In this document: in pieces, positions 6,001 to 56,511 of the stretch
How positions within the stretch are numbered: position 1 is the stretch's first letter
How the letters are laid out: each line of letters opens with the position of its first letter
Source: a phage
Sequence record: NC_094493.1
Reading direction: 5' to 3' (one strand)
Length of the DNA stretch: 64,000 bases
Program-made: the position numbers and the translations under genes
The notes under the pieces: generated by a model
What the model was told of the DNA's origin: nothing
Databases searched by the model: none
Seen by the model: the letters and a program-made list of their open reading frames with translations, nothing else

Positions 6001-8641
6001 AACATCCATATCTATGCAAGTTCCGGTAACAAACGGATACAAGCGTGTTGTGATGATCATTAAGTGCGATCTGATAGGTAAGCAAGTTCTTGCAGAGAAC
6101 GGAACTTCCACCCACCTATTTGAGACTGCTCTGCACTATCAGTTTGCTGATTCACCTTTTGCAGGGGATAAGAGAATATCTGACACAGACGCTGTGCGAT
6201 GCAAGAAATTTATGCTAGGTGGCGGGTGGTGGTGGTATGAATTTGACTTAACAGACAAATTCACCGACACATCTAAAGTGGTGACAGGACTTCGTCTAGA
6301 CCTGGGTGAGAACATGCATAAAAGTGTTTGTGATGGCACCTACGGTGATCCTACGGTATACTTGAAGTATGTTTCTTTTGAGCACCCTGAAGATGTTGTT
6401 TATGGTCCAAAACTGAGGCTGTTTGGCAATTGGATTGCTAAAGACAGAGAAGGGATGGGTAGGAAGGTAAGAGGCTTCCTGGTCGATGCTGGCACAGAGG
6501 ATATGCTGGTGAATGCGGTGTGGCCTGAATTACCGGGAACTCAGTGGGACAATTCTGCTAAGTCTATAAACTGGTTCAATATCCACAGAGCTATGTGGGC
6601 AACTAACTGCTATCTGTGGAAAGAGTTGAATGACGGCGCTTTCGGGTTTACTGGTGGCAGAAGAATGGCAATCATTTGCTGGACAACGCTGCAGAGATGT
6701 TATGACCATGACTATGAGATTGGAGGCAGGGCATGGAAAAATATAAGGGATAGAATCATAACTAACTTTGCAGATCCTAACGGTGGCGGGGCGTATGGTT
6801 TCGACTGCAGCAGACTTATCCATTTGAACGGATCTTCGGCCTACAAGAAAGAAGGTTACTCTGGGTCTATGATAGAATGGGGTCTGGTGAAAGATGCTCG
6901 CGTGCTGATGGGTCAACAACTTGCTGCTGCAATAGGTCCTAATGCAGTGCAATCTGTTAAACCTGCGTGGTTTGATATCCCATTGTGGTCATCCGGTACA
7001 CCAGGAACTGCTGCAATCAACCCGACCACGGGGGATCTGGAAATCTCTTGGGAGGACTTGAAGCAGGTCGGTGGTTGGGATAAAACAGGGTATCAGGTTC
7101 AGTGGTGGAGACCTGATGGATCTTTAGCTGCTGATGAGTTTGTTAAGGACAATTTCTACACTATGTCCTCTGCAAAAGCACAGCAATTATTTGGTCAGGC
7201 CACTCCGTCAACGATCACCATGTCTATGTGCTGTAAAGACAACAGGACTGGAGCTTTGGGGCCAAGGGTTGCTAAGGTTTTCTCAGGTATTAAATGGAAT
7301 CTTCCTGTTCAAAGTGTTTCATGGAAGCAAATAGGTGATAACAAGCTGCTGGTTACCCCTGCCTGTCAGTTCAACGCAACTCTTAACGTTGATCCTGCTG
7401 TTGCGGCAAACTCAGCTAAAGCTTCTGACTTCTCTGTGTCTAACACTGCTATGGCAGATGTGAGGAAGATTGACACGCTGAACGCCAGAATTACCTGTAA
7501 AAACACTTATGGCACATTCCAAATCATCAACAACTTCACAGATGCTGATTCTAAGGTAGTGAGGACAGCAAGCCAGACTCTGAGTTTAGGAACTCTGGCC
7601 TATGCGGCCCTGATCACCGAGCAGTCGGCAACACTCCAAGGAGGTGGTGTAGGCAAGTCCATCGCAACACCTGTGTGGAAGCCAAATGAGTGGGTTGTGT
7701 TTGATTTGACTGTTGACTTCTCTAGCGATAATAACTGGACGTGGGTAAGGAATTGCTTACCTCAGTTGATGGGTGGTCCAAGCTCTGTCAGCGATAGCCA
7801 CGATTCTACTGACCCCAGCGTGTTCCAGATTGGTAAAACTCACCCAGAGACTGGAGAAACGTTGCCTGACAGGAAGTATGCGTTGGTTTGCATCTCTTAC
7901 GGGAAGGCAGATGTCACATTCTCAGGGACACACACTTATAACGGAACTTACAACTTCTCAAGGAAGTATAGTCTCAAAGCAGGGAACATTATAGACGAGG
8001 TCGGTGTGCTGTATAATCCGGGCAACGGCATAGGGATTGTGGGCGGTAAACTGCAGATGCAGGAACCTTCTATCACCCCTTCCAACGTATCCGGGATTAG
8101 AAAGACTTGGGAAAGTAGTAATACCAACATTGCAACAGTGGATGCCACCACAGGGCTGGTAACATTTAAAGCTACTGGGAATGTCACCATAAAGTTTGTA
8201 GTTAGAGATGATGCAGGCCGCAAAACGTCTTCAACATCGTTTACTGTCAGACAGATGGCACCTCAGTGGTTTATTTGGGAAGGAAATCCTCTTGACGGGG
8301 CTTACCCTAGACCTGCAGGAACGTCCAATATGAGGGTCTTTACCGGTCCGGTCATGGACAATCCGACCACAACCACCAACCCTACATTTTTCGGTGCTTA
8401 CATACCTGAAATTATTGGCCTACCAAGGAACCAGATACAACTGCTTTTCGGAGCAGGTGTTGATGGCCTAGCAACTTTTGGGTACAGTGACAACATTGAT
8501 GCAGCCAGAAGCTCGGGTTGGATTGGATTTAAGTTTCAGTGGAACCCTGGTGGTAGAACATTAGGTGTTGCAAGCATAGGTGTTATGCTACCTGGTAACC
8601 AGCAATACCATCTCGAAGCTTATACAAACTTCCCTAGTTAA
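3014..8641 (+). CDS. giant virion structural protein (putative adhesin/fibre) with Ig-like Big_2-type domain
   Basis: Uninterrupted 1875-aa ORF with GGAGA RBS; beta-rich W/G/N/T composition; Big_2-like segment IRKTWESSNTNIATVDATTGLVTFKATGNVTIKFVVRDDAG near the C-terminus. Confidence 0.85.
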   Translation: MLPIPLLKLGRHFLDKRGGIKELAVLSYPIDNSDGTSNTVSYVNSLAILFDDGQLNITGYNRFGECRTGDLDTINYPNEAAWNVDHVWRADRAFVIRTFDNKFFYIGCTAGLIGSEAAGGNDVCVREWTPLPEQIVTGLHLDTHPERLVEVMGGVNNTVWVIAAPEADGMLHLYGSGNNTYGSLHVDKNQHATPVKIGETSENPETGPWKNPSINCEVHDNSVIFGGPRGFWIAGYDFLRNNSRNDLVWPPVQITRNDLRGIPADEEWKGFMCGPNGAIIATQRMHRPDDQQLVNVFYGQNIWGDDTWRELNITYTHEVIMARGYGTSGIFFNNGTKQYRGFSRNLCNDIGAQSANNSPRSDFIHYQALATAKYVEQRLPVSWTESVYFQGIHREGFLGTFTVVNGKLWWSGIPRGSFAGSNNLFGGRLNSQGFTEIPENWYKNVPVDSWGIEDIFDVNGVSNVSNIYIGDTVKMKLKPQPEGATFIIDKIELVNATGTVVTDANYQFSTNWNHGGANEVVVTQYNRNINRRGLYSIKITYHDKHGTGRTYTTRTLNWNTIVPAYPSNGKWHTVGRNKQFHVNDTVYFGLNGTQPAVEGDTSYMVRLHRMDAGSVTYDVTQEIYDQRRATYDNIVKTQALWEFNPNGKGGKMLQVNEQNGTSLTVHEHQDPWPDPGKPHPGARTLKIVSHDVGYFGIRWEATVRYADGTTNNIGITLGGTSEDNSLKIAYTPRGISIDNMDVVRNGYGDVNVKVTLGEHLGGERIIMYAFDHDPRTNGTYANQAWSYLINAPEPNTKEFYYGMKRDVCKKTGTHDWIAICVKDERTAWDEPVNRWFIGIPTRSDKYVAEYIVCMGGTNLNMCWNEDVNKYSDYDYMRDYSCNLWFNQTTGYPPRQARVNPAIFTDTQVFLTKQANEVQTFKNKYDPNKWFYNCYGAFFWGPGELPGGGSCFEAATYASDRFMGQVKKYKIIPGPETLGNAVDPYIIMSDLRSNMDGTSISMQVPVTNGYKRVVMIIKCDLIGKQVLAENGTSTHLFETALHYQFADSPFAGDKRISDTDAVRCKKFMLGGGWWWYEFDLTDKFTDTSKVVTGLRLDLGENMHKSVCDGTYGDPTVYLKYVSFEHPEDVVYGPKLRLFGNWIAKDREGMGRKVRGFLVDAGTEDMLVNAVWPELPGTQWDNSAKSINWFNIHRAMWATNCYLWKELNDGAFGFTGGRRMAIICWTTLQRCYDHDYEIGGRAWKNIRDRIITNFADPNGGGAYGFDCSRLIHLNGSSAYKKEGYSGSMIEWGLVKDARVLMGQQLAAAIGPNAVQSVKPAWFDIPLWSSGTPGTAAINPTTGDLEISWEDLKQVGGWDKTGYQVQWWRPDGSLAADEFVKDNFYTMSSAKAQQLFGQATPSTITMSMCCKDNRTGALGPRVAKVFSGIKWNLPVQSVSWKQIGDNKLLVTPACQFNATLNVDPAVAANSAKASDFSVSNTAMADVRKIDTLNARITCKNTYGTFQIINNFTDADSKVVRTASQTLSLGTLAYAALITEQSATLQGGGVGKSIATPVWKPNEWVVFDLTVDFSSDNNWTWVRNCLPQLMGGPSSVSDSHDSTDPSVFQIGKTHPETGETLPDRKYALVCISYGKADVTFSGTHTYNGTYNFSRKYSLKAGNIIDEVGVLYNPGNGIGIVGGKLQMQEPSITPSNVSGIRKTWESSNTNIATVDATTGLVTFKATGNVTIKFVVRDDAGRKTSSTSFTVRQMAPQWFIWEGNPLDGAYPRPAGTSNMRVFTGPVMDNPTTTTNPTFFGAYIPEIIGLPRNQIQLLFGAGVDGLATFGYSDNIDAARSSGWIGFKFQWNPGGRTLGVASIGVMLPGNQQYHLEAYTNFPS

Positions 8642-8654
8642 CAGGAGGCAAATA

Positions 8655-8683
8655 AAAAGGGGCCAGACGGCCCCTTTCTTTTT
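8655..8683. terminator. bidirectional intrinsic terminator between convergent genes
   Basis: AAAAAGGGGCCagacGGCCCCTTTCTTTTT: GC stem flanked by an A-run and a T-run, between the plus-strand stop at 8641 and the minus-strand gene ending at 8688. Confidence 0.65.
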
Positions 8684-8687
8684 ATAA

Positions 8688-8888
8688 TTAGTAATATTCC
8701 CAACACGACCCATCTTCAGACGGCTGGACACGCTTACCTTCATGATCGACATAGGTGTAACCACAGCCTTCACAAATAACAGGTGCTGCATAGCCTTCCT
8801 TCCACTGACCCTCAGTGATCAATCCTTTCAGATCTCCGCAGTCACGACCAAACAACTCTTCAGAACAGTCTTTACAAAAATCAGCCAT
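8688..8888 (-). CDS. small zinc-ribbon-like protein
   Basis: 66-aa ORF with CxxC...CxxC cysteine pairs (CKDC...CEGC); last gene of the minus-strand block. Confidence 0.55.
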   Translation of the reverse strand: MADFCKDCSEELFGRDCGDLKGLITEGQWKEGYAAPVICEGCGYTYVDHEGKRVQPSEDGSCWEYY

Positions 8889-8957
8889 CTCTATCAGTCT
8901 CCATATTTAACCAATCTATATTACATATTGCCGAAGAAACAGTATTTCATTTCATCA

Positions 8958-9176
8958 TCACAGATCTCCAACAACTTCCCAAATACCCCAGTGAGCATCT
9001 ATATCCTTGATAAAGTATCTTTCTCCACGGTTTGTCCACACACCTATCCCAACTTTACCATCTATCCCATTGTATACATCTGCCTCATACTCTTTGCCCG
9101 GTGTAAAGTGTACACCCATCATAAGGGCTGTTATTCCATTAGGATTTTTAAATTTAACAAATTTTACTTTGCTCAT
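8958..9176 (-). CDS. hypothetical protein (72 aa)
   Basis: Co-oriented ORF abutting the next gene (9176/9178). Confidence 0.5.
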   Translation of the reverse strand: MSKVKFVKFKNPNGITALMMGVHFTPGKEYEADVYNGIDGKVGIGVWTNRGERYFIKDIDAHWGIWEVVGDL

Positions 9177-9177
9177 A

Positions 9178-9507
9178 TTACTTAACCCTTGCAGTTACAG
9201 TAGCGCTATACCCCATGTAGTTATGAGACATAAAGAATGTAAGCCCTTTAAGTTCAGGATTCTTTCTAAGAAATCGTTTCAATTTTCGAATGCAATTAAC
9301 ACCATGATCATAGTTTGAGAAATTAAATTTAATACCCTGCTCCATCATAGTGCACACTTCTTCATGGGTATGCCATTGTCTATCGTGGTCACAAAACCAG
9401 TAACCAATACCTTCTTTTTCTTGGATATGCAATCCCCAAAATACTTTATGCATTGGATATTTTGGTTTTCTACCATGATAATGTAGTTTAATATTCACAT
9501 GTGCCAT
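9178..9507 (-). CDS. hypothetical protein (109 aa)
   Basis: Co-oriented ORF in a tightly packed minus-strand block. Confidence 0.5.
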   Translation of the reverse strand: MAHVNIKLHYHGRKPKYPMHKVFWGLHIQEKEGIGYWFCDHDRQWHTHEEVCTMMEQGIKFNFSNYDHGVNCIRKLKRFLRKNPELKGLTFFMSHNYMGYSATVTARVK

Positions 9508-9674: not shown

Positions 9675-10055
9675 TTATGACACTTTGACGTAGCGCTCTG
9701 ACAGAGCTGGAAAGCCAAAAGCAGTACCTATACTACCGTATGCTACCCACCATTGAAGTTCATCGTGACACCATTTTCCGATCAGGAAGGTGCTGGGGTA
9801 GCGGGTCAGTATTTTGGCATAAGCTTTAGGGTCTGCATCTTCTGGGATAATGATACTTGGAACATCTTTGTTATGACCACAGCAGCAGTTTAGAGTTTTC
9901 AATCCTGCCGCCCATAGACTCATGATAGGCTTAGCCATGCACTTATCAAGGCACACACGTTTTTTGCCGTCACGGAGCTTTTTAGGCACATCAACGATAA
10001 CATTTTGATGCTTGGCACCTTTCACTTTCCAATTATAGGATTTACACTTGCACAT
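9675..10055 (-). CDS. hypothetical Cys-rich protein (126 aa)
   Basis: ORF with clustered cysteines (CKCK, CLDKC, NCCCGH), possibly metal-binding. Confidence 0.5.
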   Translation of the reverse strand: MCKCKSYNWKVKGAKHQNVIVDVPKKLRDGKKRVCLDKCMAKPIMSLWAAGLKTLNCCCGHNKDVPSIIIPEDADPKAYAKILTRYPSTFLIGKWCHDELQWWVAYGSIGTAFGFPALSERYVKVS

Positions 10056-10261
10056 TTAATCAGTCTCCATCTAGAAAGCAATACTTTACTTAAAATCTTT
10101 GTCACCTATTACGATTGCACGAATCCACTCATTGTGATGTTCAATGGCGGTAAGGTGTAACATAATGCAGTGATTGTCATTACCAAACACGGTGCGGTAA
10201 GCTTTAGCAGCACCATGATATAACTTCCACATCAGGTGATGATATCTTCGCCTCATGGCTC

Positions 10262-10732
10262 TTACTCCGGTTCAGGATCTGGGTAATCTTCAATAATAAA
10301 TGGCCATCCGTTCCGCTTAGCTTCAGACTTATACTCGATCTCCTTCATTGCAAACTCTAACTGATTTTTAGCCGGAATACATGCCGGAGAATCATCAATC
10401 CAGATATCTGGGTAGATATCAAACTGCGCCAGATAGGCTGCCTTCTGAACACCTCCAGTATAAAACACGCCAACATCAAGCTCCTTGCGCCAATACTCAA
10501 TGTCTACATTGTCTTGAGTAATGAATCGGAAAGTCACAAGGTAGACTGTCCACCCCTCCTTCTTCAGATCCCTGATCAGGCGGGAGAAGATGAAAGGGCT
10601 CGCATTAAACGTTCCATCAAAGTCAATGGCAATGATGTGCGTGCCGTGGCGAGTCTCATATGGATTGCTTGTGGTAAGATTGCTGTAGTTAAAAGGGACC
10701 TCTTCCCCGCAGTAGCTGTAGTCCATATTCAC
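10262..10732 (-). CDS. HAD-superfamily phosphatase-like protein (possible nucleotidase)
   Basis: HAD motif I-like IAIDFDGTF and a late WIDDSP acidic motif; 156 aa. Confidence 0.5.
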   Translation of the reverse strand: MNMDYSYCGEEVPFNYSNLTTSNPYETRHGTHIIAIDFDGTFNASPFIFSRLIRDLKKEGWTVYLVTFRFITQDNVDIEYWRKELDVGVFYTGGVQKAAYLAQFDIYPDIWIDDSPACIPAKNQLEFAMKEIEYKSEAKRNGWPFIIEDYPDPEPE

Positions 10733-11004
10733 ACCTTCTCGTTGATAAATTTACGGGCGGTTTGGTGAGTTGTTTCTGCTGTCTTCAGAATAATATTAAT
10801 TTTATCGTCAAGATCATTCATCTCAGCAGCTAATTCAGGAATCTCTCCGGCATGCATAGTGAAATCATACATAGACATGCCAAGAATCTCATTGATTCGG
10901 CGGTTGCATTCTGCAGCACGCTGGTTCATTTTCCAAGCTAACACCAGAGCCTCTTGCGTAGCCTCCAGTGCAAAGTCTAATACGTCAGCTTCTTCTTTCG
11001 TCAT
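10729..11004 (-). CDS. hypothetical protein (91 aa)
   Basis: 4-nt start/stop overlap with downstream gene; helical, acidic. Confidence 0.5.
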   Translation of the reverse strand: MTKEEADVLDFALEATQEALVLAWKMNQRAAECNRRINEILGMSMYDFTMHAGEIPELAAEMNDLDDKINIILKTAETTHQTARKFINEKV

Positions 11005-11059: not shown

Positions 11060-11626
11060 TTATTCAAACTGCAATAGCAAGTCCACCACCGCACTAGGCC
11101 TGTCAACAAATTCCCCAGGCCCACATGCCCATAGAGGGTATCCATCAACATACCGCCATATCCAACCTGCAGTGTGAAGCTCAAGCAGGGCAGTGCCGTC
11201 CTTACTGTCAACCACCCTTTCCCACAGTGTTGGGCAGCGAAGCTTGAGAATCGGGTCCCCGCCCTTATACCCGTCCATGTAGATACCCATTGCAAAGTTC
11301 AGCATCATCTTTTTGTGCACTGATCTCTTACTGAGAGTGCTCATCACTTCCTCTTTGTGAATGTTTGTAAGCTTCTCCTTGGCTACCCGCAGATTGTTGC
11401 AACCATTGTTCAGCAGATCTTCCAGACACTTGATCCGAAGGTCGTGAATGTCTTTGTCGTGTACCGTTGGCACAGGGTCGTAGCGGTATAGCACTGTTGA
11501 TACAAGGTTGCTCGGGTGTGGGTCTGACAGCAACCCATAACCCCAATACTCTTCTGTATCTGAAAGGACAAGACACCCAATGTCTCTGTCAAGCTTTCCT
11601 GTGTTGTAAGCCACATTGACCGCCAT
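11060..11626 (-). CDS. hypothetical protein (188 aa)
   Basis: Long ORF in the co-oriented block; abuts 11629. Confidence 0.55.
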   Translation of the reverse strand: MAVNVAYNTGKLDRDIGCLVLSDTEEYWGYGLLSDPHPSNLVSTVLYRYDPVPTVHDKDIHDLRIKCLEDLLNNGCNNLRVAKEKLTNIHKEEVMSTLSKRSVHKKMMLNFAMGIYMDGYKGGDPILKLRCPTLWERVVDSKDGTALLELHTAGWIWRYVDGYPLWACGPGEFVDRPSAVVDLLLQFE

Positions 11627-11628
11627 GA

Positions 11629-11874
11629 CTATAGCTCCACTAACAAAGTGCTTTCAAAGTGCCGTTCATGCAGACCGTTGTAAGGGACCACTTCTACAAC
11701 GCCATCACGGACATATGGGGCCATCATGGTGGTATAATCTCCAAACGGGTTGGTATTGTCACTAACCACAACCACCTTCTGCCCTTCCTTGGCAGAGTGC
11801 CAAATAGATCTGCACTTCATCAGGTGTTCGAGAGCTCCAGGTAAAATTTTGTTACGTTCTTTACGGGTCTTCAT
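11629..11874 (-). CDS. hypothetical protein (81 aa)
   Basis: Start/stop overlap with neighbours on both sides. Confidence 0.5.
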   Translation of the reverse strand: MKTRKERNKILPGALEHLMKCRSIWHSAKEGQKVVVVSDNTNPFGDYTTMMAPYVRDGVVEVVPYNGLHERHFESTLLVEL

Positions 11875-12320
11875 AATAGGTATAGCTCCTTATGAAAGTA
11901 GTCTTTTAATTTCTCACTGAGAAACCTCTTGATACCTTCCTCTAAAGTGTTTTCGATGTAGTCCAGCTTAACTGCTTCGATGGACATATCATAGATCGCC
12001 AGCTCTAAGCTGTCAAGTCCCATCATAGCATGAACCATAAGATTTTCATCTTCAGATACATTCAGGGGACTTCCTATAACATCTGTAGGGAGGATAGTTT
12101 CCCAATTATTCTGGGTGGTAGTTCTCCCGCCATCCACTTTACGGCGTAGTTCGAAGGTGTTCTTAGTGTAGAACACTTCATAAGAAACGATACGGCTGTC
12201 GCTCTCATAATAAACGAAGTTCAGGTAGGAGCCTAGCCGCAGTCGGCAAACTTCTACCCCAAACCATTGTTTCTTATAAGAATTCAGGCTAATGCTGTCG
12301 CATTCACGTTTGCTCAACAC
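11871..12320 (-). CDS. hypothetical protein (149 aa)
   Basis: Co-oriented ORF, 4-nt overlap with downstream gene. Confidence 0.55.
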   Translation of the reverse strand: MLSKRECDSISLNSYKKQWFGVEVCRLRLGSYLNFVYYESDSRIVSYEVFYTKNTFELRRKVDGGRTTTQNNWETILPTDVIGSPLNVSEDENLMVHAMMGLDSLELAIYDMSIEAVKLDYIENTLEEGIKRFLSEKLKDYFHKELYLL

Positions 12321-12835: not shown

Positions 12836-13101
12836 TACTCTTCCTCCATAGTTTCACCAAATACTTCGATACGAGCATCGAGCTCGGTTGCTTTCAGCTC
12901 CCCAACAAAATATTTTAGTTCTTTCTCGTCCAGATCGTAAGCCCACACACAAGAAGAACATGCAGATTTCACAATCAGCAGCGTAGATACACGACCTGAC
13001 TCTGTGATCATGCTCACAATGGTTCCCACAGGGAACGTGTTGATAGCTTTTTTAACTGGGCGTTCAGCTTTAATTACTACCTCTGTTGCCATAAATAACA
13101 T
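12835..13101 (-). CDS. hypothetical protein (88 aa)
   Basis: Co-oriented ORF, 1-nt overlap with downstream gene. Confidence 0.5.
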   Translation of the reverse strand: MLFMATEVVIKAERPVKKAINTFPVGTIVSMITESGRVSTLLIVKSACSSCVWAYDLDEKELKYFVGELKATELDARIEVFGETMEEE

Positions 13102-13107
13102 CCTCTC

Positions 13108-14589
13108 TTACTTAGCGTACTCGATTAATTCCACAGTTTTACCAAAGCTAGGGATATAATTTTTATTATACCCTTCGGTTAGAACCCATAAAGTATCGTA
13201 CTTTTTCCACTTGTTGTCAACAGCCTTTTGTTCAAAGTTATGCTCAAAGTATAGGTCGGTCAGGACGATGACATCTTTTGCATTTGGTATGTTGGCATCC
13301 AGATACTCGAACACGCAAGCAGCTGTTGTTCCCCATGTTGAGTGGACCTCATAGTTGATCATTTCGTCTATGTTGCCGCGAGTGTATACTTTAACCTCCC
13401 CAACCTCAGTTGACCAACAGAACATTGTAACCTTAAATTCTTTATACAGATTGCACAATCCGGTTATTTCATTGAACATTTTCTTTAAAGTTCTTTGAGA
13501 GATCGAGCCAGAAACGTCTAAAGCTACAACAATATCTATGGTGTTTTCCGGATTACGACCGGGAACAATAACGTGCTGGTTCTTGTTTATAGCCCCAACT
13601 TTTCGCATTGTGCTGGTCAAAGACCCAGATCGGCGACCAGGTTTTCTGTAGGTCAGTTCAGCCTTTCGTTTAGACAACATGCGTTGCTTAATGATGTCTA
13701 TATAGTTGATTACAGGCTTACCCCTGTTCTTGACAAACTCACGCACCGCCTCAGGGCAACGACCTCCGGAAGCTTGCATTGCTGCTTCCAGCATGTCACC
13801 AGAGTCTTGCATGGCCTGATCTTTATCAGATTGGCTGATTACAGGTTGTGGCTGATCATACCCCATAGCCTTTCCAAGATCATCGCTGGTGCCACCGTTG
13901 CCGCTCATGTGATCATCGGTTTGTCGCTTATCTCCTTGAGAATTCTCACCTTTGCCGCTCTTACTTTTACCGTTATTCTGATCTCTTTGCTTATCAAGAA
14001 CTGCATAGACGTTCTCAGCAATCCATCCATGAAACTTCATGTCGCAGTAGCAACTAGCTAAGAAGCCAAAAGGCTTACCTTTTACGAACTCAGTGCTTTT
14101 CCCCTTTGGGAAGAAAACACAAGGAGGCTTGCTAAAGTCAACCACAAGACCTGTGTTGATAACGTGATCACAAGCAATATTGAACAGTTCCGGCTCAAAG
14201 CTTTTACCACGGACCAGATGATCACAGATAATATGCCCCACCTCATGTGACAGAAGAAAGGCCACCTCTTTCACAGATTTTGGGGAATAGAAAACCTCAG
14301 CCATCTCAAACTGCTTGTCAGTCAGAGATGCTTTAAGAATGGTTTTACGCTCATCCGCCAACCCCATAATGAACTCAGGGCTGTAGTAGATGCGTTTATG
14401 GTCGGTTGCCATGGTGGAGCACCATGTGTGGTTTTCTACGAACTGCAACCCTGACAGCAGTGTGCCATAAAACGGCAGCTTTTCAAGGAGATACATACGT
14501 GCAGCCTGCAACATTCTCAGGGCATCATCTTTCTGTGAGGCAATGATTTCTGAACTTCTGCTATCCATTAAAACTCCAGAAGGGGCCAT
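13108..14589 (-). CDS. vWA-domain protein with N-terminal HExxH metallopeptidase-like domain (MoxR-partner type)
   Basis: HEVGHIICDH (HExxH) near the N-terminus and a von Willebrand A MIDAS-like VVALDVSGSIS motif further on; 493 aa; ATG confirmed. Confidence 0.75.
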   Translation of the reverse strand: MAPSGVLMDSRSSEIIASQKDDALRMLQAARMYLLEKLPFYGTLLSGLQFVENHTWCSTMATDHKRIYYSPEFIMGLADERKTILKASLTDKQFEMAEVFYSPKSVKEVAFLLSHEVGHIICDHLVRGKSFEPELFNIACDHVINTGLVVDFSKPPCVFFPKGKSTEFVKGKPFGFLASCYCDMKFHGWIAENVYAVLDKQRDQNNGKSKSGKGENSQGDKRQTDDHMSGNGGTSDDLGKAMGYDQPQPVISQSDKDQAMQDSGDMLEAAMQASGGRCPEAVREFVKNRGKPVINYIDIIKQRMLSKRKAELTYRKPGRRSGSLTSTMRKVGAINKNQHVIVPGRNPENTIDIVVALDVSGSISQRTLKKMFNEITGLCNLYKEFKVTMFCWSTEVGEVKVYTRGNIDEMINYEVHSTWGTTAACVFEYLDANIPNAKDVIVLTDLYFEHNFEQKAVDNKWKKYDTLWVLTEGYNKNYIPSFGKTVELIEYAK

Positions 14590-14601
14590 TGGCCCCTGTC
14601 A

Positions 14602-15642
14602 TTATTTAACGTGTTTGAAAATACCTGCCAACTCGGTCATTGTCATGCGGGTGGTCTTCATAAGATCTGTCATAGCTTTCTCCATAATTGGAGATACTAC
14701 CATAAAGTTTCCTTTAGTGAAACCCTTATTCCAGTCGGTCACCAACAGTGGTTTAAGTCCAGCTCCGAGACGTTCACCAGTTAAAGCACAGCATTTGCGA
14801 ATATACGAACTCTTAAATTGGCTGAACGACAGATCAACTTTCATACCTGCATCGTAGAACGTTTGACAATAGAAAGTGTAAGCCTTAGCAATCTCAACAT
14901 CATCAGGCAGTGCAGGAACCTCTTCTGCAATCCCCTCTTCGACCTCCTGAGGCTCTTTTTCCTCTTCAGAGTTCTGTTCTTCAACTTCTTCTGTCACAGT
15001 CTCGTTCACGATGTCTGAAATGTGTTTGTTGGCTGCACGATCAGCCATGAAATTTTTAAAGTCCTGCATTGGTGACATATCTTCTTCCTCTTCGTCAAAT
15101 AGTGCTAGTTTATCTTCTTCTGTCCCGTATTGCAAGATGAAATCTTCAAAAGTATAATCACCTTTCAATTTCTCCATACGCTCTTCGCTCAGGTGGAGCA
15201 TCATCTGCTGGACAATTTTTCGATCAGTTTTGTCTTTAATCAGGATTGCAGTCTTTTTATCTACCAGACAGTCTTTCAGAGCATTGCACCTCAACCCTAC
15301 CACACAACAATTATCAATTGCGTAAGGACCTTCATCATCTATCCGCTCCAGAGATGGGTAGAAAGGATTTCCCAGTCCGTTTTCATCTGTGTGCATGTCG
15401 AAAGGTATAAGAGTGTAGTCGCATACCCCCTCCCCTAAAAGTTTTTTACCAAATAGGAGGTATTCTTCCCATGACAGGTCGAACTCTATATCTCGTTTCC
15501 GTGCGTTATTCTGTTTGCGTCTATATTTTTTGAGCAAGCGCTCTAACTCTTCTGGTGTATAATATTTTTCAAGATTCATGAGTTGTCTCTCGTGCTCTGT
15601 AAGTGAAGAAATCGTATCAATTGTCTTAACAGATGTCAACAT
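14602..15642 (-). CDS. hypothetical protein with duplicated Cys-containing motif and acidic linker (possible HNH-like nuclease)
   Basis: 347-aa ORF; two related segments (KRDIEFDLSWEEY...GVCDYT and AKAYTFYCQTF...KCCALTGERL) plus ERIDDEGPYAIDNCCVVGLRCNALK; ORF track starts at TTG 15645, ATG at 15642 used here. Confidence 0.55.
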   Translation of the reverse strand: MLTSVKTIDTISSLTEHERQLMNLEKYYTPEELERLLKKYRRKQNNARKRDIEFDLSWEEYLLFGKKLLGEGVCDYTLIPFDMHTDENGLGNPFYPSLERIDDEGPYAIDNCCVVGLRCNALKDCLVDKKTAILIKDKTDRKIVQQMMLHLSEERMEKLKGDYTFEDFILQYGTEEDKLALFDEEEEDMSPMQDFKNFMADRAANKHISDIVNETVTEEVEEQNSEEEKEPQEVEEGIAEEVPALPDDVEIAKAYTFYCQTFYDAGMKVDLSFSQFKSSYIRKCCALTGERLGAGLKPLLVTDWNKGFTKGNFMVVSPIMEKAMTDLMKTTRMTMTELAGIFKHVK

Positions 15643-15652
15643 CAAAAACGTG

Positions 15653-15681
15653 TTGACTTTACTCTAAATCTCCGATATAGT
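15653..15681 (+). promoter_or_regulatory. sigma70-type promoter for the plus-strand middle operon
   Basis: TTGACT, 17-nt spacer, TATAGT, about 40 nt upstream of the ATG at 15722. Confidence 0.6.
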
Positions 15682-15721
15682 GCACCCATTCGAAAGAAAA
15701 CCAACATAGGAGCACTCACTC

Positions 15722-16621
15722 ATGGCAAATCTTAACAGTTTTAGTACGCGGTGGAAACAGGACATAACAACCAATCTTTCAGCTGGGGACATCCTTTCTG
15801 CAATTTACGAGGCTTTAGATGATAAAGCTACTTCAAAAGCGGTTTGTACCAACCCACTAATTCCTGTAGTGATGAAGGTTATTGAGCGTAGATTGGTATC
15901 TGGGTCTGATAAGTGGACATATTTAGATAATGAAGGACACACCTATTCCAATGGGTACGTCGATATAAAAGTAGAATACGCGGTATCATACCGCCGGAGC
16001 GGTTCTGTAACTTTCAACTTCTCTGGAGGTTTTCGATCTCTGGCTACCTCACCTTTTGTTTCCTCAGAGGAGAAGTATGAGCTGCCATTTCTTTGGATGA
16101 TGGCTAACGCGACAGGAAAAACCCCCGTTAGCATCCGAGTAAAATACAACTACAACGGATCTAGTAAGATCTATGCCGAAAGTGTCTCAGCAAGTTTTTA
16201 TTTTGTGATGGGGGATGGAATCCTCAAACATATAAAGATGTGCGACATGCATGATGTTATAAATGAAGTGACTGATAAGAATGTTCTAGTGAAAGACCTT
16301 AACAATTTTTATACACCCGGAGACTATTACGTCAGCCGTCCACTGTGCATCTTTAATGCCGCACACCCTCTAGGTGAGTATTTGATCGCCAATAGCGATA
16401 TTGCCAATAACCGATTCGAGGTAGCAAGAGTTCAGAATGAGGTATTGACATCTTGCAAGAGCGGTGATAAGTTTACCGAAGAAGAGATGGGTGTTTTAGA
16501 AATGATGGGATATAAGTGTAGCCTTTGGGTAGATGAGGTGTTTAATGATTGCATCTATGGACAGGATATTTACCCATTAAAGAAGTATACTGATACAAGT
16601 TTAATTTATGCGAGGGTTTGA
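15722..16621 (+). CDS. hypothetical protein (299 aa)
   Basis: ATG with GGAG RBS; first gene after the divergent promoter region. Confidence 0.6.
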   Translation: MANLNSFSTRWKQDITTNLSAGDILSAIYEALDDKATSKAVCTNPLIPVVMKVIERRLVSGSDKWTYLDNEGHTYSNGYVDIKVEYAVSYRRSGSVTFNFSGGFRSLATSPFVSSEEKYELPFLWMMANATGKTPVSIRVKYNYNGSSKIYAESVSASFYFVMGDGILKHIKMCDMHDVINEVTDKNVLVKDLNNFYTPGDYYVSRPLCIFNAAHPLGEYLIANSDIANNRFEVARVQNEVLTSCKSGDKFTEEEMGVLEMMGYKCSLWVDEVFNDCIYGQDIYPLKKYTDTSLIYARV

Positions 16622-16896
16622 CTATGATGAAGGCATGTGGTAATGTATATTACGTCGGTGAACATGTTCAGGCAGACAGTGTGTGGAAATCTATTAAGTC
16701 CACCACTGACGATGCCTTTCTGAGTGGACTATGTTTCCCCAATCCGGGAGACATCCTCCCTCATCCTGGAGATTTTGTTGTCAACAAGATGGACGGTTAT
16801 ACCGTGTGCCTGATGGTTGAAAAAATCTTTTTAGACACTAGACACAATCACCGTCTTGTGTTAAAATTTCAAGAATGTAAAATGACAATTGCCTAA
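16618..16896 (+). CDS. hypothetical protein (92 aa)
   Basis: 4-nt overlap with upstream stop (translational coupling). Confidence 0.5.
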   Translation: MTMMKACGNVYYVGEHVQADSVWKSIKSTTDDAFLSGLCFPNPGDILPHPGDFVVNKMDGYTVCLMVEKIFLDTRHNHRLVLKFQECKMTIA

Positions 16897-16909
16897 GGAG
16901 ACCTTACCG

Positions 16910-17266
16910 ATGTCTAAAGTTACTTATCGTGCAGCTATTTACTGCAATGAACACCCAATCAATAATGATGGTCACTGCCTTTTTAAAGAAAATCAGTTGG
17001 GATGTATTGTCCTCCCTGATGAAGGGAAAGGTTATCTGATTGCATTGACAGGGTTTGAACCTGAAGCTCTGGAAGCCAATCTGGACTACCTGGTAGAAGA
17101 GGGTGCTGCAGACCTGGTTGCCAATGGCTTCTCCATAAGCCTTGACGAAGTGGAGCGCTTCATGGGCAATTACCGTGTAGTGCGTGAGTTTACTATCGAG
17201 GTGGAAACTCCAGAGTGGGGTAGCCATGAAACTAATGCCGAAGAAAAAGAAGAGGGGGTAGAATAA
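16910..17266 (+). CDS. hypothetical acidic protein
   Basis: ATG 16910 preceded by AAGGAG; ORF-track start 16889 is TTG. Confidence 0.55.
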   Translation: MSKVTYRAAIYCNEHPINNDGHCLFKENQLGCIVLPDEGKGYLIALTGFEPEALEANLDYLVEEGAADLVANGFSISLDEVERFMGNYRVVREFTIEVETPEWGSHETNAEEKEEGVE

Positions 17267-17523
17267 TGAAAGTGCAGATCTTGACTAATGCCGAGAAGAT
17301 GTTTATTGAAGATACACCTTTTGAAGCTGGTGAGCTACAGTTCATTTATTTTGTTGACTTAGATAAGGTGTTCCCTGCACTGAATCTTGGTCTGGATGAA
17401 GTTCCTCATAAGGTTTTGTGCCAAGTTGTTCGTGCATTAGCGGCAGATGGGGAGTTCCACACCCTTGAAGATGTCCAGACCTACGGGTATCTTGAACTAC
17501 AACGAGAAGAAGAGGTGAACTGA
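17266..17523 (+). CDS. hypothetical protein (85 aa)
   Basis: Overlapping stop/start with upstream gene. Confidence 0.5.
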   Translation: MKVQILTNAEKMFIEDTPFEAGELQFIYFVDLDKVFPALNLGLDEVPHKVLCQVVRALAADGEFHTLEDVQTYGYLELQREEEVN

Positions 17524-17525
17524 TA

Positions 17526-17906
17526 ATGGCCCAGTGGAAGACAACAGTTGACCTTCATGATCAGTGGTTAGGACGCATCACTGAAGACGGGAAGCTAGTG
17601 GAGTGGGACAATAAGCATGTTAGCGAGTTGGCAAGCATTGTGGCTGGCAAGTTACGCTCCAAGTTCCCTGAACAACTGGATCCTGATAATTCAAAGTTCG
17701 ATCCTGAGTTGGAGGATGTTGTATACTACTTCGATACCGTGGATGACTACGATGCGTGGCTTGCAGCACGGGAGCTTTACCCACAAGGCTCTGCTATGCG
17801 CCAGATGGAAGAAGATTATCCTCCGTGTGAGCAATTCAATAGCGCAATGACTTGCCTCTATGATTGGGCAGATAAGAACCTTGTCTGGATTCGAACTGCA
17901 TTCTAG
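17526..17906 (+). CDS. hypothetical protein (126 aa)
   Basis: Co-oriented ORF in operon. Confidence 0.5.
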   Translation: MAQWKTTVDLHDQWLGRITEDGKLVEWDNKHVSELASIVAGKLRSKFPEQLDPDNSKFDPELEDVVYYFDTVDDYDAWLAARELYPQGSAMRQMEEDYPPCEQFNSAMTCLYDWADKNLVWIRTAF

Positions 17907-17909
17907 CAG

Positions 17910-18218
17910 GTGGTGGTGGCAGGGATGCCGCTTAGAAGAGTAATAAACATGTTATACCAGAAACACGAACTTTGTGCAGAAAAAGAGTTAAATTTTGACA
18001 AAGTTATCCACAGATATTGTTATGGGAAGACCGGAAGACAACTAAGAAGGTGTACCCCAACATTCTTTCACCCCAGTAGACGGCTAAGTCCTGAAGAAGC
18101 AACAGCAGAAAGGGTTGCATACAACTGGGAAGTTGTGTACGATATTGACAGATCCGATGTGGCATCTGTTTTGGAAAACTTTGAAAACACTTACACACAA
18201 GTAGAGGACTTTTACTAA
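17910..18218 (+). CDS. hypothetical protein (102 aa)
   Basis: Co-oriented ORF; stop overlaps the start of the AAA+ gene. Confidence 0.5.
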   Translation: MVVAGMPLRRVINMLYQKHELCAEKELNFDKVIHRYCYGKTGRQLRRCTPTFFHPSRRLSPEEATAERVAYNWEVVYDIDRSDVASVLENFENTYTQVEDFY

Positions 18219-19402
18219 TGTCAAGAAACGTATTTGAAAGTGGTCAAATCACTGTCCGTGAGTTGCCAGCTATCATTCAGTTTGCCCAACGTCATAACCG
18301 ATCTGTCCTGATTTTAGGACCAATGGGCGTGGGGAAGAGCCAGGTGATGAAGCAGATCGCCGATAATATGTTCGGTGAGCGAGATGACAACCTGGTTGAC
18401 GTGCGACTGTCAGATAAAGATCCTGCCGACTTATCTGGGCTACCTATCCCTGTAGAAGCGGATGGAACTACACGTACAGTGTTTGCAATTCCAGAATTCT
18501 GGCCTGCAGATCCGGGCTGGAGCGGAATTATCTTTCTGGATGAGCTCACTCATGCAGATAACTACCTGCAAAAGGTTGCAATGCAGATTATGCTCGACCA
18601 CAAGTGCGGCACCTATGCATTCCCTAAGGGCTCTGTTTTTGTAGCTGCAGGTAACCGTTCTACAGATGGTGCTGTTCTTTCGGCGCTCGAAGCCCCTCTG
18701 GCTAACCGCTTTATCATTGTAGAAGTTACAAGCAACGCAGAGGTGTTTATTGAGGACTACGCATTCCTTAATGGGGTGCACTCCTCTGTAATTGGATATC
18801 TGAAAAGAGTTCCATCAGCTATTGATAATTATGAGGCCATGGCTGAGATTAATTGTCCATCTTTTGCCACACCGCGATCTTGGGTTGCTGCATCTGATAT
18901 CTTGCACGATTTTGACAGCGGTATTATTTCTGACGCTATGGCCCGTGTTCTTCTACAAGGTGCTATTGGTCACACTGCAGCGGTAGAGATCTGGACTTAC
19001 CACACCAAGAAACGCAACTTACCGGAAATCGGTCGGATTATGGCAGGAGGTTGCAAAGAATACGTAGGCCCTAAACAGCCAGACATCTTGTGGATTCTTG
19101 GATCTGAAGGTTGTATCGCTATTCGTAATATGATGGAAAATGCAAGTATCTCCGACGAAGATCTTGTTAGCTGTGTGGCAAACTTCCTCGATTTCCTTTG
19201 GGAAAACTTCAAGGACGAGAACCGAGATTTTGTATTCTCAGTCTTTATGGCGATGATGAAACCTAATGCCTTAGGAAATGCCTTGCTTATCGGTAAAGGT
19301 CGTGACAAGATTGTTGCTCAGCTGATCAAAGCATACCCAAACCTGATGAAGATTGTAAAAGAGTTTGGTGAAGAGTTTAGCGCCATTTTGGCTAAAGCTT
19401 AA
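18218..19402 (+). CDS. MoxR-like AAA+ ATPase
   Basis: Walker A LILGPMGVGKS and Walker B IIFLDELTHAD; single AAA core of about 390 aa as in MoxR/AAA_5 proteins. Confidence 0.75.
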   Translation: MSRNVFESGQITVRELPAIIQFAQRHNRSVLILGPMGVGKSQVMKQIADNMFGERDDNLVDVRLSDKDPADLSGLPIPVEADGTTRTVFAIPEFWPADPGWSGIIFLDELTHADNYLQKVAMQIMLDHKCGTYAFPKGSVFVAAGNRSTDGAVLSALEAPLANRFIIVEVTSNAEVFIEDYAFLNGVHSSVIGYLKRVPSAIDNYEAMAEINCPSFATPRSWVAASDILHDFDSGIISDAMARVLLQGAIGHTAAVEIWTYHTKKRNLPEIGRIMAGGCKEYVGPKQPDILWILGSEGCIAIRNMMENASISDEDLVSCVANFLDFLWENFKDENRDFVFSVFMAMMKPNALGNALLIGKGRDKIVAQLIKAYPNLMKIVKEFGEEFSAILAKA

Positions 19403-19411
19403 GGAGGTTGT

Positions 19412-19792
19412 ATGGCTAAAGTAGGTAAGCGGGGAAACTACCTGGTGGTATTGACCGAGGAGCCGGAGAAGGAGTACGAATGCAGCTCCACTTGCGTGAT
19501 CGATATCCGAGAAAAAGATGTAGATGAAATCTGGTTTAAAATATTGGACGCTTGCGATAGCAGTGATTATTTCTTCATCTATGTCAACGATAAGGCTGGG
19601 TTCTTCCATGACGACGGAGAGTTGCCGTATGAAATCTATGAACTTGTAGAGGCTTGCCATCGTGGAGATGCGGAGTTGTTTGGCTTACGGCTGAAAAGCG
19701 GTAAATTCTTCTATCAAGATGAGTGCATGAATCTTCATAACTTTGTAGAGGGAACTTGCAACGATGGAGAGATTTTGGCACACTACGATTAA
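19412..19792 (+). CDS. hypothetical protein (126 aa)
   Basis: ATG with GGAGG RBS immediately after the AAA+ gene. Confidence 0.5.
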   Translation: MAKVGKRGNYLVVLTEEPEKEYECSSTCVIDIREKDVDEIWFKILDACDSSDYFFIYVNDKAGFFHDDGELPYEIYELVEACHRGDAELFGLRLKSGKFFYQDECMNLHNFVEGTCNDGEILAHYD

Positions 19793-19804: not shown

Positions 19805-19830
19805 CCCCGCTTCGGCGGGGATTTTCTATT
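19805..19830 (+). terminator. putative intrinsic terminator
   Basis: CCCCGCttcgGCGGGG hairpin followed by ATTTTCTATTT. Confidence 0.6.
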
Positions 19831-52802: not shown

Positions 52803-52821
52803 TTTTTTAACTGAATTATCA

Positions 52822-52846
52822 AGGGGCTTAGGCCCCTTTCTTTTTG
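52822..52846 (+). terminator. intrinsic terminator closing the plus-strand early block
   Basis: AGGGGCttagGCCCCT followed by TTCTTTTTG. Confidence 0.7.
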
Positions 52847-53565
52847 TCTGCTCTTCCCCCTACCATAAACGGCCCTACCTGGCAAGTGGAATAATTGACG
52901 AGCCATCAATCCCACACACTGTACAAATATACATGTAAAATAGCTATTGCATAACCTTTCATTGTGTGGTAGCAGGGCTATTTTTACCCGTTTTCCCTTC
53001 CAAAATTGCACGTAATGCCGCTATTGCACAAATTTTAACCTGATGCACATCTCCAATATCTTGTCAACAACTAAAAATCTTTATAAGTCATACACTTACA
53101 CAACATAGAAAGCGTGTCCTACGCGAAAAATCGAGTATAACTATAGCCGCCAGATCTCAGAATTCACGTACGCACGCCATTCTATAGCCTGCAAAGTATT
53201 TATTCCAACCACAGAATAACGGAATAGTCAATACCTGCATAAAATAATTATTCGTGTAAACTGCATAACATAAATCAGCTCAGGTGTCAACATTTTTCGT
53301 AAACAGTCCGAAATTATCACGATGAGTTATCATAAACAGAGAAATCTTTAGTCGTCTAATGTTTACTGTACATTACTATACTGACTGGAATCATTAGATG
53401 ACTAAGAGAAAGATAAGAAATAATTAATAATGTGATTATTTTACCTGTAACAATAAGGCAACTATGCAAACGAATGGCATGGCGCGACGGAGTCGCGACA
53501 TAATATAAAAGCAGTAACCATCACCCCCGTGATAGTTTGTCTGCAATCTATTAATCAGATCATAG

Positions 53566-53616
53566 TTGCCTTGTATTTAGTTAATCATGACATAACAAGC
53601 AAGGCAACTATAGATC
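53566..53616. repeat. long palindrome in the non-coding convergent zone
   Basis: CATAGTTGCCTTG...CAAGGCAACTATAG inverted repeat (13-bp arms, about 26-nt loop); AAGGCAACTATG also at 53455 and TAGTTGCCCTG at 53624. Confidence 0.5.
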
Positions 53617-55290
53617 TTCTAATAGTTGCCCTGCTTTTATATTATGTCATAGAAACACCCGAAGGGGTGACCAAAGGTCACCTGGCATAGCCAGCGAAAG
53701 ATTATTAACTTGCTAATCGTTATCATGCAAACGAATGGCATGGCTTATAATTTTTGAGCAAATAGTCTATACGTGAACAGTGAGGCATGCAATAGTAACA
53801 ATTGTTATTATATCCAGTGTTTAGTTTGCCCAGTGTGTCACTATTATGTCATATTATGTCACAGTATGTCAGACAAGTTTTTCTCCTCTTTGTCAAGTGC
53901 TGCATGAAAAATTTACAAGCTGGTATGGTAGCATTTTTGCGGTCCTGTTTACATTCAGTAATGTATGTATAATCCTTGTTGTGTGGGCGTTTAGACGTCT
54001 AGACGGTTGGAAGTCCACAGGTCAATATCTAATCTATCGGCTGCTAACTATATCCCACACAAATAGTAAGAAATATGATTGTTATATGCGTAAACAGTAA
54101 CTCATGTTATCAATCCCTGTATGTATCGCCAGTGGTGCGCATAATGGGTATTATGTTAAATTGCCCGTAATGATAATGGTTCTCACAATGATATGTATTC
54201 TCATTCCCCCACACAAAATAGATTGCAAATGTTGTGCCACTATGTGAACGGCCTCACCTATTAATTTGCCTCACTGCCTCGATATTTGAGAATTGTTATA
54301 AGAATGAGAATGATTCCCATTTCGTCCGCCTGGCAGCACTCCTGTAGGACAAGCACAAAATCGTGGCATAGCTGGACCTGTTCAGATATTTCTGGCTGGC
54401 TCTTCAGGTCTGTGTGGGAAAAGCCAACCCCCTCCGGCGGCGGGGAGGGTGTCAATTAAAAAATTTATGGGGTATATGAAGCGCTCTTCAGGTAAGGCAT
54501 GTACTATGGGATGAAACCCTCTTCAGGCAATGATATTTGTGGGTGTGATATTTGCTGGAAAGCCAGATATGACGGGACTCCCGGCGGGGCAGGGGTAGTA
54601 CAGACAGGGAAAATATGGGGATGTAGTTGGGTGAATTGATCGGGCAGGTAGAGTACGGAATATGTTACAAGTATGTTAAATATGGAGGGTGAATATCTGC
54701 AGGATTTGTGTGTAAAATCAAAGACTTAAGTAGTGTTGTGGTATTTTCTATAAATAATTCAAGTTTAATAGGTAATATTTGTCTCTATCCACTTTGTGTG
54801 GTAAACAAATTCAAATGAGATTGGTTTACAAGTGTATACATAATATGCAAATTAAAGATACAAGAAACCCCCCTCCCCCTTCGGCTACCATTCACCTTTT
54901 CCTCTGACTGGTACTTAAACACTTATTCAGACTCTTCAGGTTATCACCCATACACCATATGGCAGTGACTGGTGTCCTCCGGCCCCTCTTTCGTCACCCG
55001 TCCGCTTCGCCATGCTAATGCCATAGCCAAATGTTCGGTTGTTCACCCTGTTCACTCAGGTGTATCTCCATACCCCTTCAAACCGAAGAGAACAGAAAAC
55101 CCGAATTACTCGGTAAAAGAAAAGAGAAGAACTTAATTTTATCAGGATAGGCAAGAATGTCAAGGCATGACTGCTCACTAAACAAGCAAACAGTCATGTG
55201 TGGGAGGTAAGTGATTGTGGTGGTAGGAAATTTAGTTGAAAGATGTGTTATAGGTGCTTCCAGCACTTTAGCCTGGCAGCTAATTGTGTG

Positions 55291-55506
55291 TCAGTCCAGC
55301 GGTTCATCCTCTACTTCACTGAAATCAATGTTCATGGTCTCTTCCCAACCATCGATCTCAGCACAAGAGTGGAGTTCTTTAGGGTTTACTCCCAAAGCCT
55401 CAGCAACAGAGTCTATATTTAACACCTCTGGCAGGTATGATTCATCGAATTCAAGGTAAATCAGGCCACGAGTGTTGTCAACTCCACCAAATATTTCTAT
55501 CTTCAT
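55291..55506 (-). CDS. hypothetical acidic protein
   Basis: ATG at 55506 preceded by AGGAGA; begins MKIEIFGG, the MK[IV][KE][IL] N-terminus seen in several genes of this block; ORF-track start 55572 trimmed. Confidence 0.55.
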   Translation of the reverse strand: MKIEIFGGVDNTRGLIYLEFDESYLPEVLNIDSVAEALGVNPKELHSCAEIDGWEETMNIDFSEVEDEPLD

Positions 55507-56199: not shown

Positions 56200-56511
56200 C
56201 TATACCCATGAGGGCTTATCAAGATTGGAGTAGCTAAAAGGTGTCAAAAGGTGACTGTCAAAATCTCTCAAACTATCCAGATCTTTTTCCTCGTCCTGGC
56301 ACCATCTGTGCCTACATTTATTGTTGTAGTGCATAGAATGCATAGCGTTCTGCAACTTAACAGGTACAAGTGATTCAGGAGTAGATAGTATTGTTGGGTA
56401 TGCCAGAACCACCTCAAACAGTGGAAACACATCGAAACTAAAGTCTACCTCTGCAGAGGTTGATGGCATATAGGAGTATTTAGCCGCCTTTGTAGACATA
56501 ATCCACCTCAC
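56200..56511 (-). CDS. hypothetical protein (103 aa)
   Basis: 4-nt start/stop overlap with upstream gene. Confidence 0.55.
   Translation of the reverse strand: MRWIMSTKAAKYSYMPSTSAEVDFSFDVFPLFEVVLAYPTILSTPESLVPVKLQNAMHSMHYNNKCRHRWCQDEEKDLDSLRDFDSHLLTPFSYSNLDKPSWV

Follow-up and report, generated by a model that had tools for sequence, protein, structure and literature searches.

Introduction

Phage N4 encodes an AAA ATPase (gp24) and a von Willebrand factor A (vWA) protein (gp25) that were described as being of unknown function in 2009 and counted in the pan-proteome core of N4-like viruses in 2020; the original annotators of N4 had found gp24 and gp25 similar to two Streptomyces proteins. 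The 64,000-nucleotide stretch of phage DNA analysed here (sequence record NC_094493.1; hereafter the window) encodes a MoxR-class AAA+ ATPase that is a distant homolog of gp24, together with a homolog of gp25 (hereafter the partner, or peptidase-vWA protein) in which a putative HExxH metallopeptidase domain is fused to a vWA domain with a MIDAS (metal ion-dependent adhesion site). The source of the window is an rV5-like coliphage (Vequintavirus), and positions 13000-19500 are 97-98% identical to AlexBoehm (Bas56) and about 120 further records. The corresponding genes of rV5 were listed as gene 4, ‘MoxR - ATPase’, and gene 12, ‘DUF2201_N’ (Kropinski et al. 2013).

A MoxR/(metallopeptidase)-vWA pair of identical architecture was described in group 2.2 jumbo phages, where a role in virion assembly and processing was proposed (Iyer et al. 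2021, Viruses 13:63); in contrast to that pair, the gene order in the window is split. The system of MoxR and peptidase-vWA protein is already described, and the derived gene arrangement is all that the window adds to it. More remote are CbbQ-CbbO and NorQ-NorD, which combine a CGN-subfamily MoxR protein with a vWA protein, with ATPase identities of only 18-19% and NorD identities of 9-11%; CbbO and NorD have no peptidase domain, and the clients are Rubisco and nitric oxide reductase. The viral MoxR-vWA pair p618 (MoxR)/p892 (vWA) of Acidianus two-tailed virus, which has a chaperone role in the extracellular development of the tails, is likewise devoid of a peptidase domain, and no close homology to it was detected here.

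Two genes of the window are considered here as probable halves of one conserved N4 gp24/gp25-type machine that serves host takeover or counter-defence, and not virion assembly. The evidence comes from the domain content of the proteins, the neighbourhood of their genes in relatives and published transposon data on nearly identical orthologs.

Identity of the two proteins

Both open reading frames (ORFs) named in a preliminary description of the window were recovered with their motifs (Table 1), which are Walker A GPMGVGKS and Walker B IIFLDELTH in the ATPase, and HEVGH and the MIDAS start LDVSGS in the partner; the motif residues are invariant in the family alignments, so these are not chance occurrences. 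Taken alone, the ATPase scores under every Pfam and NCBIfam cut-off (AAA_5, 16.7 bits against a cut-off of 22; bpMoxR, 15.2 against 27), and a single-sequence search against PDB sequences returned P-loop matches only. It is assigned to PHROG 1297, and its nearest relatives outside Vequintavirinae-like phages are proteins of about 360 aa with 34% identity over 85% of the length (E about 1e-44), which carry AAA_3 and AAA_5. These two domains were matched by 13 of the 34 aligned homologs (about 31-33% identical, E about 1e-44), the Pfam link of the window ATPase to MoxR being only transitive, and the family profile matches the AAA domains of midasin (E about 1e-9). Residues G37, G39, K40, S41, D108, E109, N146, R147, R164 and R220 are invariant in the 34 sequences, with N146 and R147 in the context ‘AGNR’, R164 in ‘PLANRF’ (compare MoxR ‘LDRF’) and R220 in ‘TPRSW’. 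The hallmarks of the AAA+ superfamily are all found, namely Walker A and B, sensor-1, arginine finger, sensor-2 arginine and an alpha-beta-alpha core with a helical lid. In the predicted model, beta2 and beta3 are separated by a clear hairpin (E76-81/E84-89), and beta4 is preceded by two very short strands at about 129-134; the closest structural neighbours are MoxR proteins, and the model resembles CbbQ, NorQ, dynein and midasin. We place the ATPase, as a divergent member, in the MoxR/AAA_5 clade, which is related to dynein and midasin, so that the MoxR-like label of the preliminary description is upheld even though the direct AAA_5 score is below threshold.

Terminase, clamp-loader and Clp-type identities were considered for the ATPase and rejected: the matches to ClpB and ClpC cover only the P-loop region, and the family profile favours midasin.

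The partner matches, in N-to-C order and above both gathering scores, DUF2201_N (PF13203, ‘putative metallopeptidase’; residues 95-321, E=2.5e-28, 99.9 bits against a cut-off of 23.2) and DUF2201 (PF09967, ‘VWA-like’; residues 353-488, E=3.6e-11, 43.7 bits against 26.4); a single-sequence search of the protein against PDB sequences gave no match. An alignment of 42 homologs, which reaches down to about 20% identity and includes bacterial chromosomal proteins, has invariant columns H115, E116, H119, H124, A139 and D141 in the N-terminal part and D358, S360, G361, S362, G420, T421 and D445 in the C-terminal part. The latter make up a complete MIDAS, whose stretches D358-V-S360-G361-S362, G420-T421 and T444-D445 are invariant or nearly so, and the domain has the Rossmann-like vWA fold and resembles BatB and NorD in structure comparison; a confident vWA partner, as the preliminary description had proposed, is thus in place.

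The HExxH domain that had been noted at the N-terminus is borne out by the DUF2201_N match and the invariant motif (H115-E116-x-x-H119). The motif lies on a helix (106-121) preceded by a three-stranded sheet (49-69), with H124 and D141, both invariant, as candidates for the third zinc ligand, and weak profile matches were obtained to the MJ1213 minigluzincin, BepA and HtpX (M48) (E=0.012-0.3). Assignment of this domain to the zincin-like metallopeptidases, which draws on such evidence, is less secure than that of the vWA domain. Neither protein had a meaningful match in NCBIfam or PADLOC, so neither belongs to a catalogued defence system.

Names given to the partner family in databases are widely wrong. 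It appears as ‘HNH endonuclease’ in PHROG 1314 and in many RefSeq records, N4 gp25 included, and elsewhere as ‘anti-sigma factor’, ‘tail protein’ or ‘DNA repair ATPase’. The peptidase-vWA protein showed neither an HNH motif nor a match to a nuclease domain; the ‘HNH endonuclease’ label is shown to be wrong, which is relevant to genome annotation.

Counted from its first ATG the partner ORF has 493 aa, but translation probably begins at the second ATG (14568) and gives the 486-aa product that is annotated in the BASEL phages, because a GGAG Shine-Dalgarno sequence accompanies the second ATG and the first falls within a GC hairpin (14581..14597). The 2013 gene table of rV5 gives the partner gene 441 aa, followed by an overlapping gene 13 of 81 aa, where the window and the BASEL phages have a single ORF of 486-493 aa; the rV5 record of genes 12/13 probably carries a frameshift or a truncated annotation.

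PHROGs and several records give the name ‘ATPase’ to a small ORF directly before the ATPase gene (17910-18218, +; 89-102 aa; PHROG 13164), but it has no ATPase motif or Pfam match, and the name looks like annotation spill-over. The stop codon of this ORF and the start codon of the MoxR gene overlap (TAATG), which suggests translational coupling of the two. We found no support for the idea that the ORF was split off from the N-terminus of the ATPase, since the homologs begin at the same position without it.

The N4 pair (Schitoviridae core) has the same domain architecture, and the N4 region scores 189 bits on the ATPase profile and 279 bits on the partner profile; gp24 aligns with the ATPase at 26% identity over 88% of its length (tblastn, E=3e-21). 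The rV5-type proteins are longer than those of N4, with a helical C-terminal extension on the ATPase and insertions in the peptidase domain before and after HExxH.

Gene neighbourhood in relatives

The preliminary description had noted that MoxR ATPases normally work with a vWA partner encoded in the same operon, and that here the two genes stand about 3.6 kb apart in divergent units. The measured spacing is 3,628 bp, and the genes lie on opposite strands, diverging from a shared intergenic region (Table 1). To place this layout, the ATPase alignment was used to retrieve 80 IMG/VR loci, which were scored against the profiles of both families, 70 of them having enough downstream sequence. In 66 of these 70 informative loci, the partner was found on the same strand at most 300 bp downstream of the ATPase (median gap, 74 bp); the remainder comprise one locus with a 548-bp gap, one without a partner and two with an opposite-strand layout like that of the window. 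A scan with one bacterial partner protein yielded bacterial loci in which the ATPase preceded the partner in 20/20 cases with upstream sequence, and the phage ATPase profile matches these bacterial ATPases with about 240 bits; in Sulfurivermis, the partner gene is directly downstream of the ATPase gene and a ferrochelatase gene is nearby. In phage-like contigs, the genes of the 34%-identical ATPases are immediately followed by a DUF2201_N+DUF2201 gene, and the genes for gp265c (‘MoxR ATPase’) and gp264c (‘N4 gp25-like’) adjoin in phAPEC6, as do those of gp24 and gp25 in N4. Unlike the genes of the window, the N4 genes lie on one strand (9938-10996 and 11164-12306).

An adjoining vWA/MIDAS partner is therefore true of the ATPase family and not literally of the window. 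This neighbourhood in relatives strongly supports the view that the ATPase and the peptidase-vWA protein are partners even though their genes are unlinked here, a prediction from comparative sequence data. Both genes are kept in every sampled Vequintavirus (at 95% identity or more, the ATPase is found in 117 phage records and the partner in 118) and are under strong purifying selection, the dN/dS values (0.013-0.047 for the ATPase, 0.021-0.024 for the partner) being comparable to those of rIIA and the Srd-like gene.

The single partnerless locus, L086 (an IMG/VR contig of 4496 bp), has about 1.6 kb downstream of the ATPase in which no DUF2201-type gene was detectable, and it may represent a second independent uncoupling or a loss.

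Origin of the divergent layout

In two relatives whose ATPases are 35% and 42% identical (L006 and L007), the order is helicase(-), cell-wall hydrolase(-), ATPase(+), partner(+). The window and two closer relatives, L010 and L112 (53% and 49% identity), have the same order of these four anchors with the ATPase block flipped and with an Srd-like gene interposed between that block and the partner. One in-place inversion of the ATPase block suffices to explain the split layout, and we place it in the common ancestor of Vequintavirus and the nearest genera; the split is the derived state, because the genes adjoin in N4, jumbo phages and bacteria. The preliminary description had read the locus as a phage-adapted pair, and of this the MoxR/vWA pair itself stands, whereas the split layout is a lineage-specific inversion and not a special phage adaptation.

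Back-to-back sigma-70-like promoters for both units were recognised in the divergent intergenic region, one on the + strand (15653-15681, TTGACT-17-TATAGT) and one on the - strand (15639-15611, TTGACA-17-TACGAT, with TG), the count of promoter-like sites across the whole region being not above chance. Bidirectional promoters between rV5 genes 10 and 11 were reported independently (Kropinski et al. 2013).

L112 carries an IS605-type OrfB/TnpB (Cas12f-like) gene (8081-9178, +) in the divergent region between the partner and ATPase blocks, near the inferred inversion breakpoint. The gene that adjoins the partner in the window (14602-15645, -; PHROG 3118) is the Srd-like ‘anti-sigma factor’, for which HNH endonuclease is again a wrong label. 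It stands beside the partner only in the inverted layouts (window, L010 and L112) and is absent there in L006 and L007; the annotation has it begin at 15579 and not at the TTG (15645).

Transposon-insertion data on the orthologs

Phage MaxBurger (Bas54) carries nearly identical orthologs of both window genes, its MoxR gene bas54_0063 sharing 96.7% nucleotide identity with that of the window, with 2 non-synonymous differences and the same neighbourhood. In the HIDEN-SEQ preprint (bioRxiv 10.1101/2025.11.20.689424), insertions in K-12 disrupted 60/64 TA sites of bas54_0063 and 81/86 of the partner ortholog bas54_0055, and because about 94% of the sites are disrupted both genes are non-essential; the capsid, portal, tail and prohead-protease genes of Bas54 received zero insertions. 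A clean knockout of bas54_0063 was specifically sensitive to cloned DS-28, a two-gene predicted defence system of strain CFE311, as was a knockout of bas54_0140, and the tabulated log2 fold changes between K-12 and CFE311 are -7.23 for bas54_0063 (q=0) and -5.48 for bas54_0140 (bioRxiv 10.1101/2025.11.20.689424).

Our reading of the same table further showed that bas54_0055 is depleted in CFE311 (log2 fold change -2.20, p=0.0009, q=0.009), a result absent from the text of the preprint. The genes flanking bas54_0063, bas54_0055 and bas54_0140 are unaffected in this comparison, so the CFE311 depletions are not polar. Co-depletion of the MoxR and peptidase-vWA genes would fit a joint role but does not prove one. 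In the preprint, bas54_0063 and bas54_0055 are not connected with each other; we make the link from gene neighbourhood and the preprint’s table. CRISPRi-ART, another transposon preprint and an antisense-oligomer study contained no data on either gene, and the literature yielded no functional account of DUF2201, N4 gp24/gp25, the rV5 MoxR protein or the identity of DS-28.

The gene downstream (3') of rIIB in the window (23536 onward, +) encodes a PIF1/Dda-like helicase, whose ortholog bas54_0068 is non-essential in K-12 and strongly depleted in CFE311 (log2 fold change -6.32, q=0); the main text of the preprint is silent on bas54_0068.

Proposed mechanism and alternative explanations

The ancestral state would have been a two-gene operon with the ATPase first and the partner second. 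Inversion of the ATPase block would have left the genes in two early units, transcribed divergently from a single bidirectional promoter region. The MoxR-class ATPase presumably forms a hexameric ring and, on the model of CbbQ-CbbO, NorQ-NorD and midasin, the partner’s MIDAS would grip an acidic residue of a target protein while the ring provided ATP-driven remodelling; the fused zincin domain might then cut the target or a client, and the result would be an inactivated host defence. We infer every step of this scheme, from the binding of the two proteins to each other in this phage and cleavage by the peptidase to the nature of the target and early expression; what experiment has shown, in a preprint, is only that MoxR is required against DS-28. 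As for the functions suggested in the preliminary description, host-protein remodelling gains from the anti-DS-28 phenotype of the MoxR ortholog, and virion maturation is disfavoured by the dispensability of both orthologs.

Several points weigh against a joint counter-defence machine. MoxR has a transposon phenotype about 30-fold stronger than the partner’s, and the comparison of K-12 with CFE311 contains 27 significant genes and involves strains that differ in many ways, so that the depletion of both genes may have causes other than DS-28 or a joint action. The genes that the authors matched with DS-28 are MoxR and bas54_0140, which encodes an unrelated 99-aa protein, and the peptidase gene is not one of them; in Extended Data Table 8 (sheets S6 and S7), the sheet ‘resampling_K-12_vs_CFE303’ holds the CFE311 command line and numbers (bioRxiv 10.1101/2025.11.20.689424); because this sheet duplicates the CFE311 data, the CFE303 specificity control is missing. 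The transposon and knockout results also come from a preprint. On the biochemical side, the zincin assignment depends on Pfam, weak M48/minigluzincin profiles (E=0.01-0.2), the motif and topology; a Foldseek search against PDB gave vWA matches only and none to a solved peptidase, since vWA matches fill the result lists; and no interaction, ATPase or protease assay for any family member was found in the literature. Lastly, phAPEC6 gp265c was detected in purified virions (6 peptides, 19% coverage).

The alternative that survives best is that the genes have become uncoupled in rV5-like phages, the ATPase having been recruited after the inversion to work with other partners, for instance a bas54_0140-type protein, while the vWA-peptidase acts alone or on something else. 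The unequal depletion (log2 fold change -7.2 against -2.2), the DS-28 pairing reported only for MoxR and bas54_0140 and the separate transcription units all fit uncoupling, but both genes occur in all sampled Vequintavirus (117 and 118 records) under equally strong purifying selection, the inverted layout keeps both down to 49% identity, and their interaction-relevant motifs are all intact. In addition, both are significantly depleted in the same host when their neighbours are not, and on balance we regard uncoupling as unlikely.

A chaperone for virion assembly or maturation, as Iyer et al. (2021) suggested by analogy with p618/p892, has in its favour a published proposal for the same domain architecture, an archaeal-virus precedent and the virion-associated gp265c. 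Yet the phAPEC6 preparation also held thymidylate synthase, which suggests carry-over, and the vWA partner was undetected in it; neither gene has mass-spectrometric evidence among the structural proteins of rV5, and rV5-like phages have a separate prohead protease. The genes lie in early/replication regions of rV5, N4 and environmental phages and not in structural modules: the surroundings of the window pair are early, host-takeover and replication genes (Srd-like, rIIA/B, helicase), and the N4 pair stands in an early/middle region beside nucleotide-metabolism genes. Published Bas54 data further indicate that infectious particles form without either gene, unlike what a p618/p892-type function would entail, since both orthologs were hit at about 94% of TA sites where the structural genes had no insertions. 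For the rV5-type pair, the transposon data oppose the essential morphogenetic role proposed in jumbo phages and favour counter-defence, leaving an assembly role very improbable.

Least likely, and only slightly behind assembly, is a metal-cofactor insertion or enzyme-maturation chaperone for a phage or host nucleotide-metabolism enzyme, comparable to CobS/CobT, BchI/BchD, NorQ/NorD or CoxD/CoxE: NorQ-NorD and CbbQ-CbbO, the nearest relatives of solved structure, serve to mature or activate enzymes, and the pair neighbours dCTP deaminase, ThyA and 5'-3' exonuclease genes in N4 and environmental phages (and the ferrochelatase gene in Sulfurivermis), but those systems have no invariant HExxH peptidase domain such as is seen here, the sole recorded phenotype depends on a defence system and not on growth or nucleotide supply, and proximity to nucleotide genes may merely reflect a common early/middle module.

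Other features of the window

The coordinates of the two genes and of related features are collected in Table 1.

Table 1. Positions of the two genes and associated features in the window.
Feature	Position	Strand	Remarks
MoxR-class AAA+ ATPase	18218..19402	+	394 aa; rV5 gp4; ortholog of bas54_0063
Zincin-like (putative) HExxH domain and vWA/MIDAS domain in one protein	13108..14589	-	rV5 gp12; ortholog of bas54_0055
Divergent intergenic region, back-to-back sigma-70-like promoters for both units	15580..15721	.	promoter-like sites
Terminator-like hairpin two genes 3' of the ATPase	19805..19820	+	CCCCGCTTCGGCGGGG then T-run; consensus match only
99-aa protein, ortholog of bas54_0140	56203..56499	-	99% amino-acid identity; PHROG 12072, function unknown

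Proteins of the bas54_0140 type were found in Vequintavirus only (117 records, all at least 80% identical), and through the shared DS-28 phenotype the 99-aa protein may be a lineage-specific client or adaptor of the pair.

A stretch of about 2.5 kb (52803-55306) is gene-free and low in GC (0.389 at 52-54 kb), with a change in the sign of the GC skew around it and, at 53448-53864, a cluster of direct and inverted ATAGTTGCC(C/T)TG copies and other repeats; no Rfam match was found in it. The orthologous Bas54 region, between bas54_0134 and bas54_0135, has no tolerated insertions (bioRxiv 10.1101/2025.11.20.689424), and we regard the stretch as a possible origin of replication or a key region for regulation.

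Finally, 16-18 unannotated GenBank records (MG0656xx, ‘Campylobacter phage’, host C. jejuni) share 96-99% identity with the sequence of this E. coli Vequintavirus, which suggests that they are mislabelled or contaminant.

Implications for the gp24/gp25-type module

The module belongs to the core of Schitoviridae and is common in Vequintavirinae, jumbo phages and others. More tentatively than the role proposed above for the two window genes, it can be asked whether the module is a general phage counter-defence machine, an ATP-driven, MIDAS-targeted protease by which host immune proteins such as DS-28 would be removed or remodelled; this is a possibility that we would put a little above uncoupling and well below an even chance. 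Small lineage-specific adaptors of the bas54_0140 type would then possibly direct the module, and the bacterial copies would be its cellular ancestors, or else defence or regulatory counterparts.

Few gene pairs outside structure and replication are conserved over such different phage families, and this one has carried the label ‘function unknown’ since the annotation of the N4 genome. In Vequintavirus, its two halves are unlinked, dispensable and open to mutation one at a time, and a defence-specific phenotype is on record for one of them, which makes these phages a convenient place in which to solve the function of the module.

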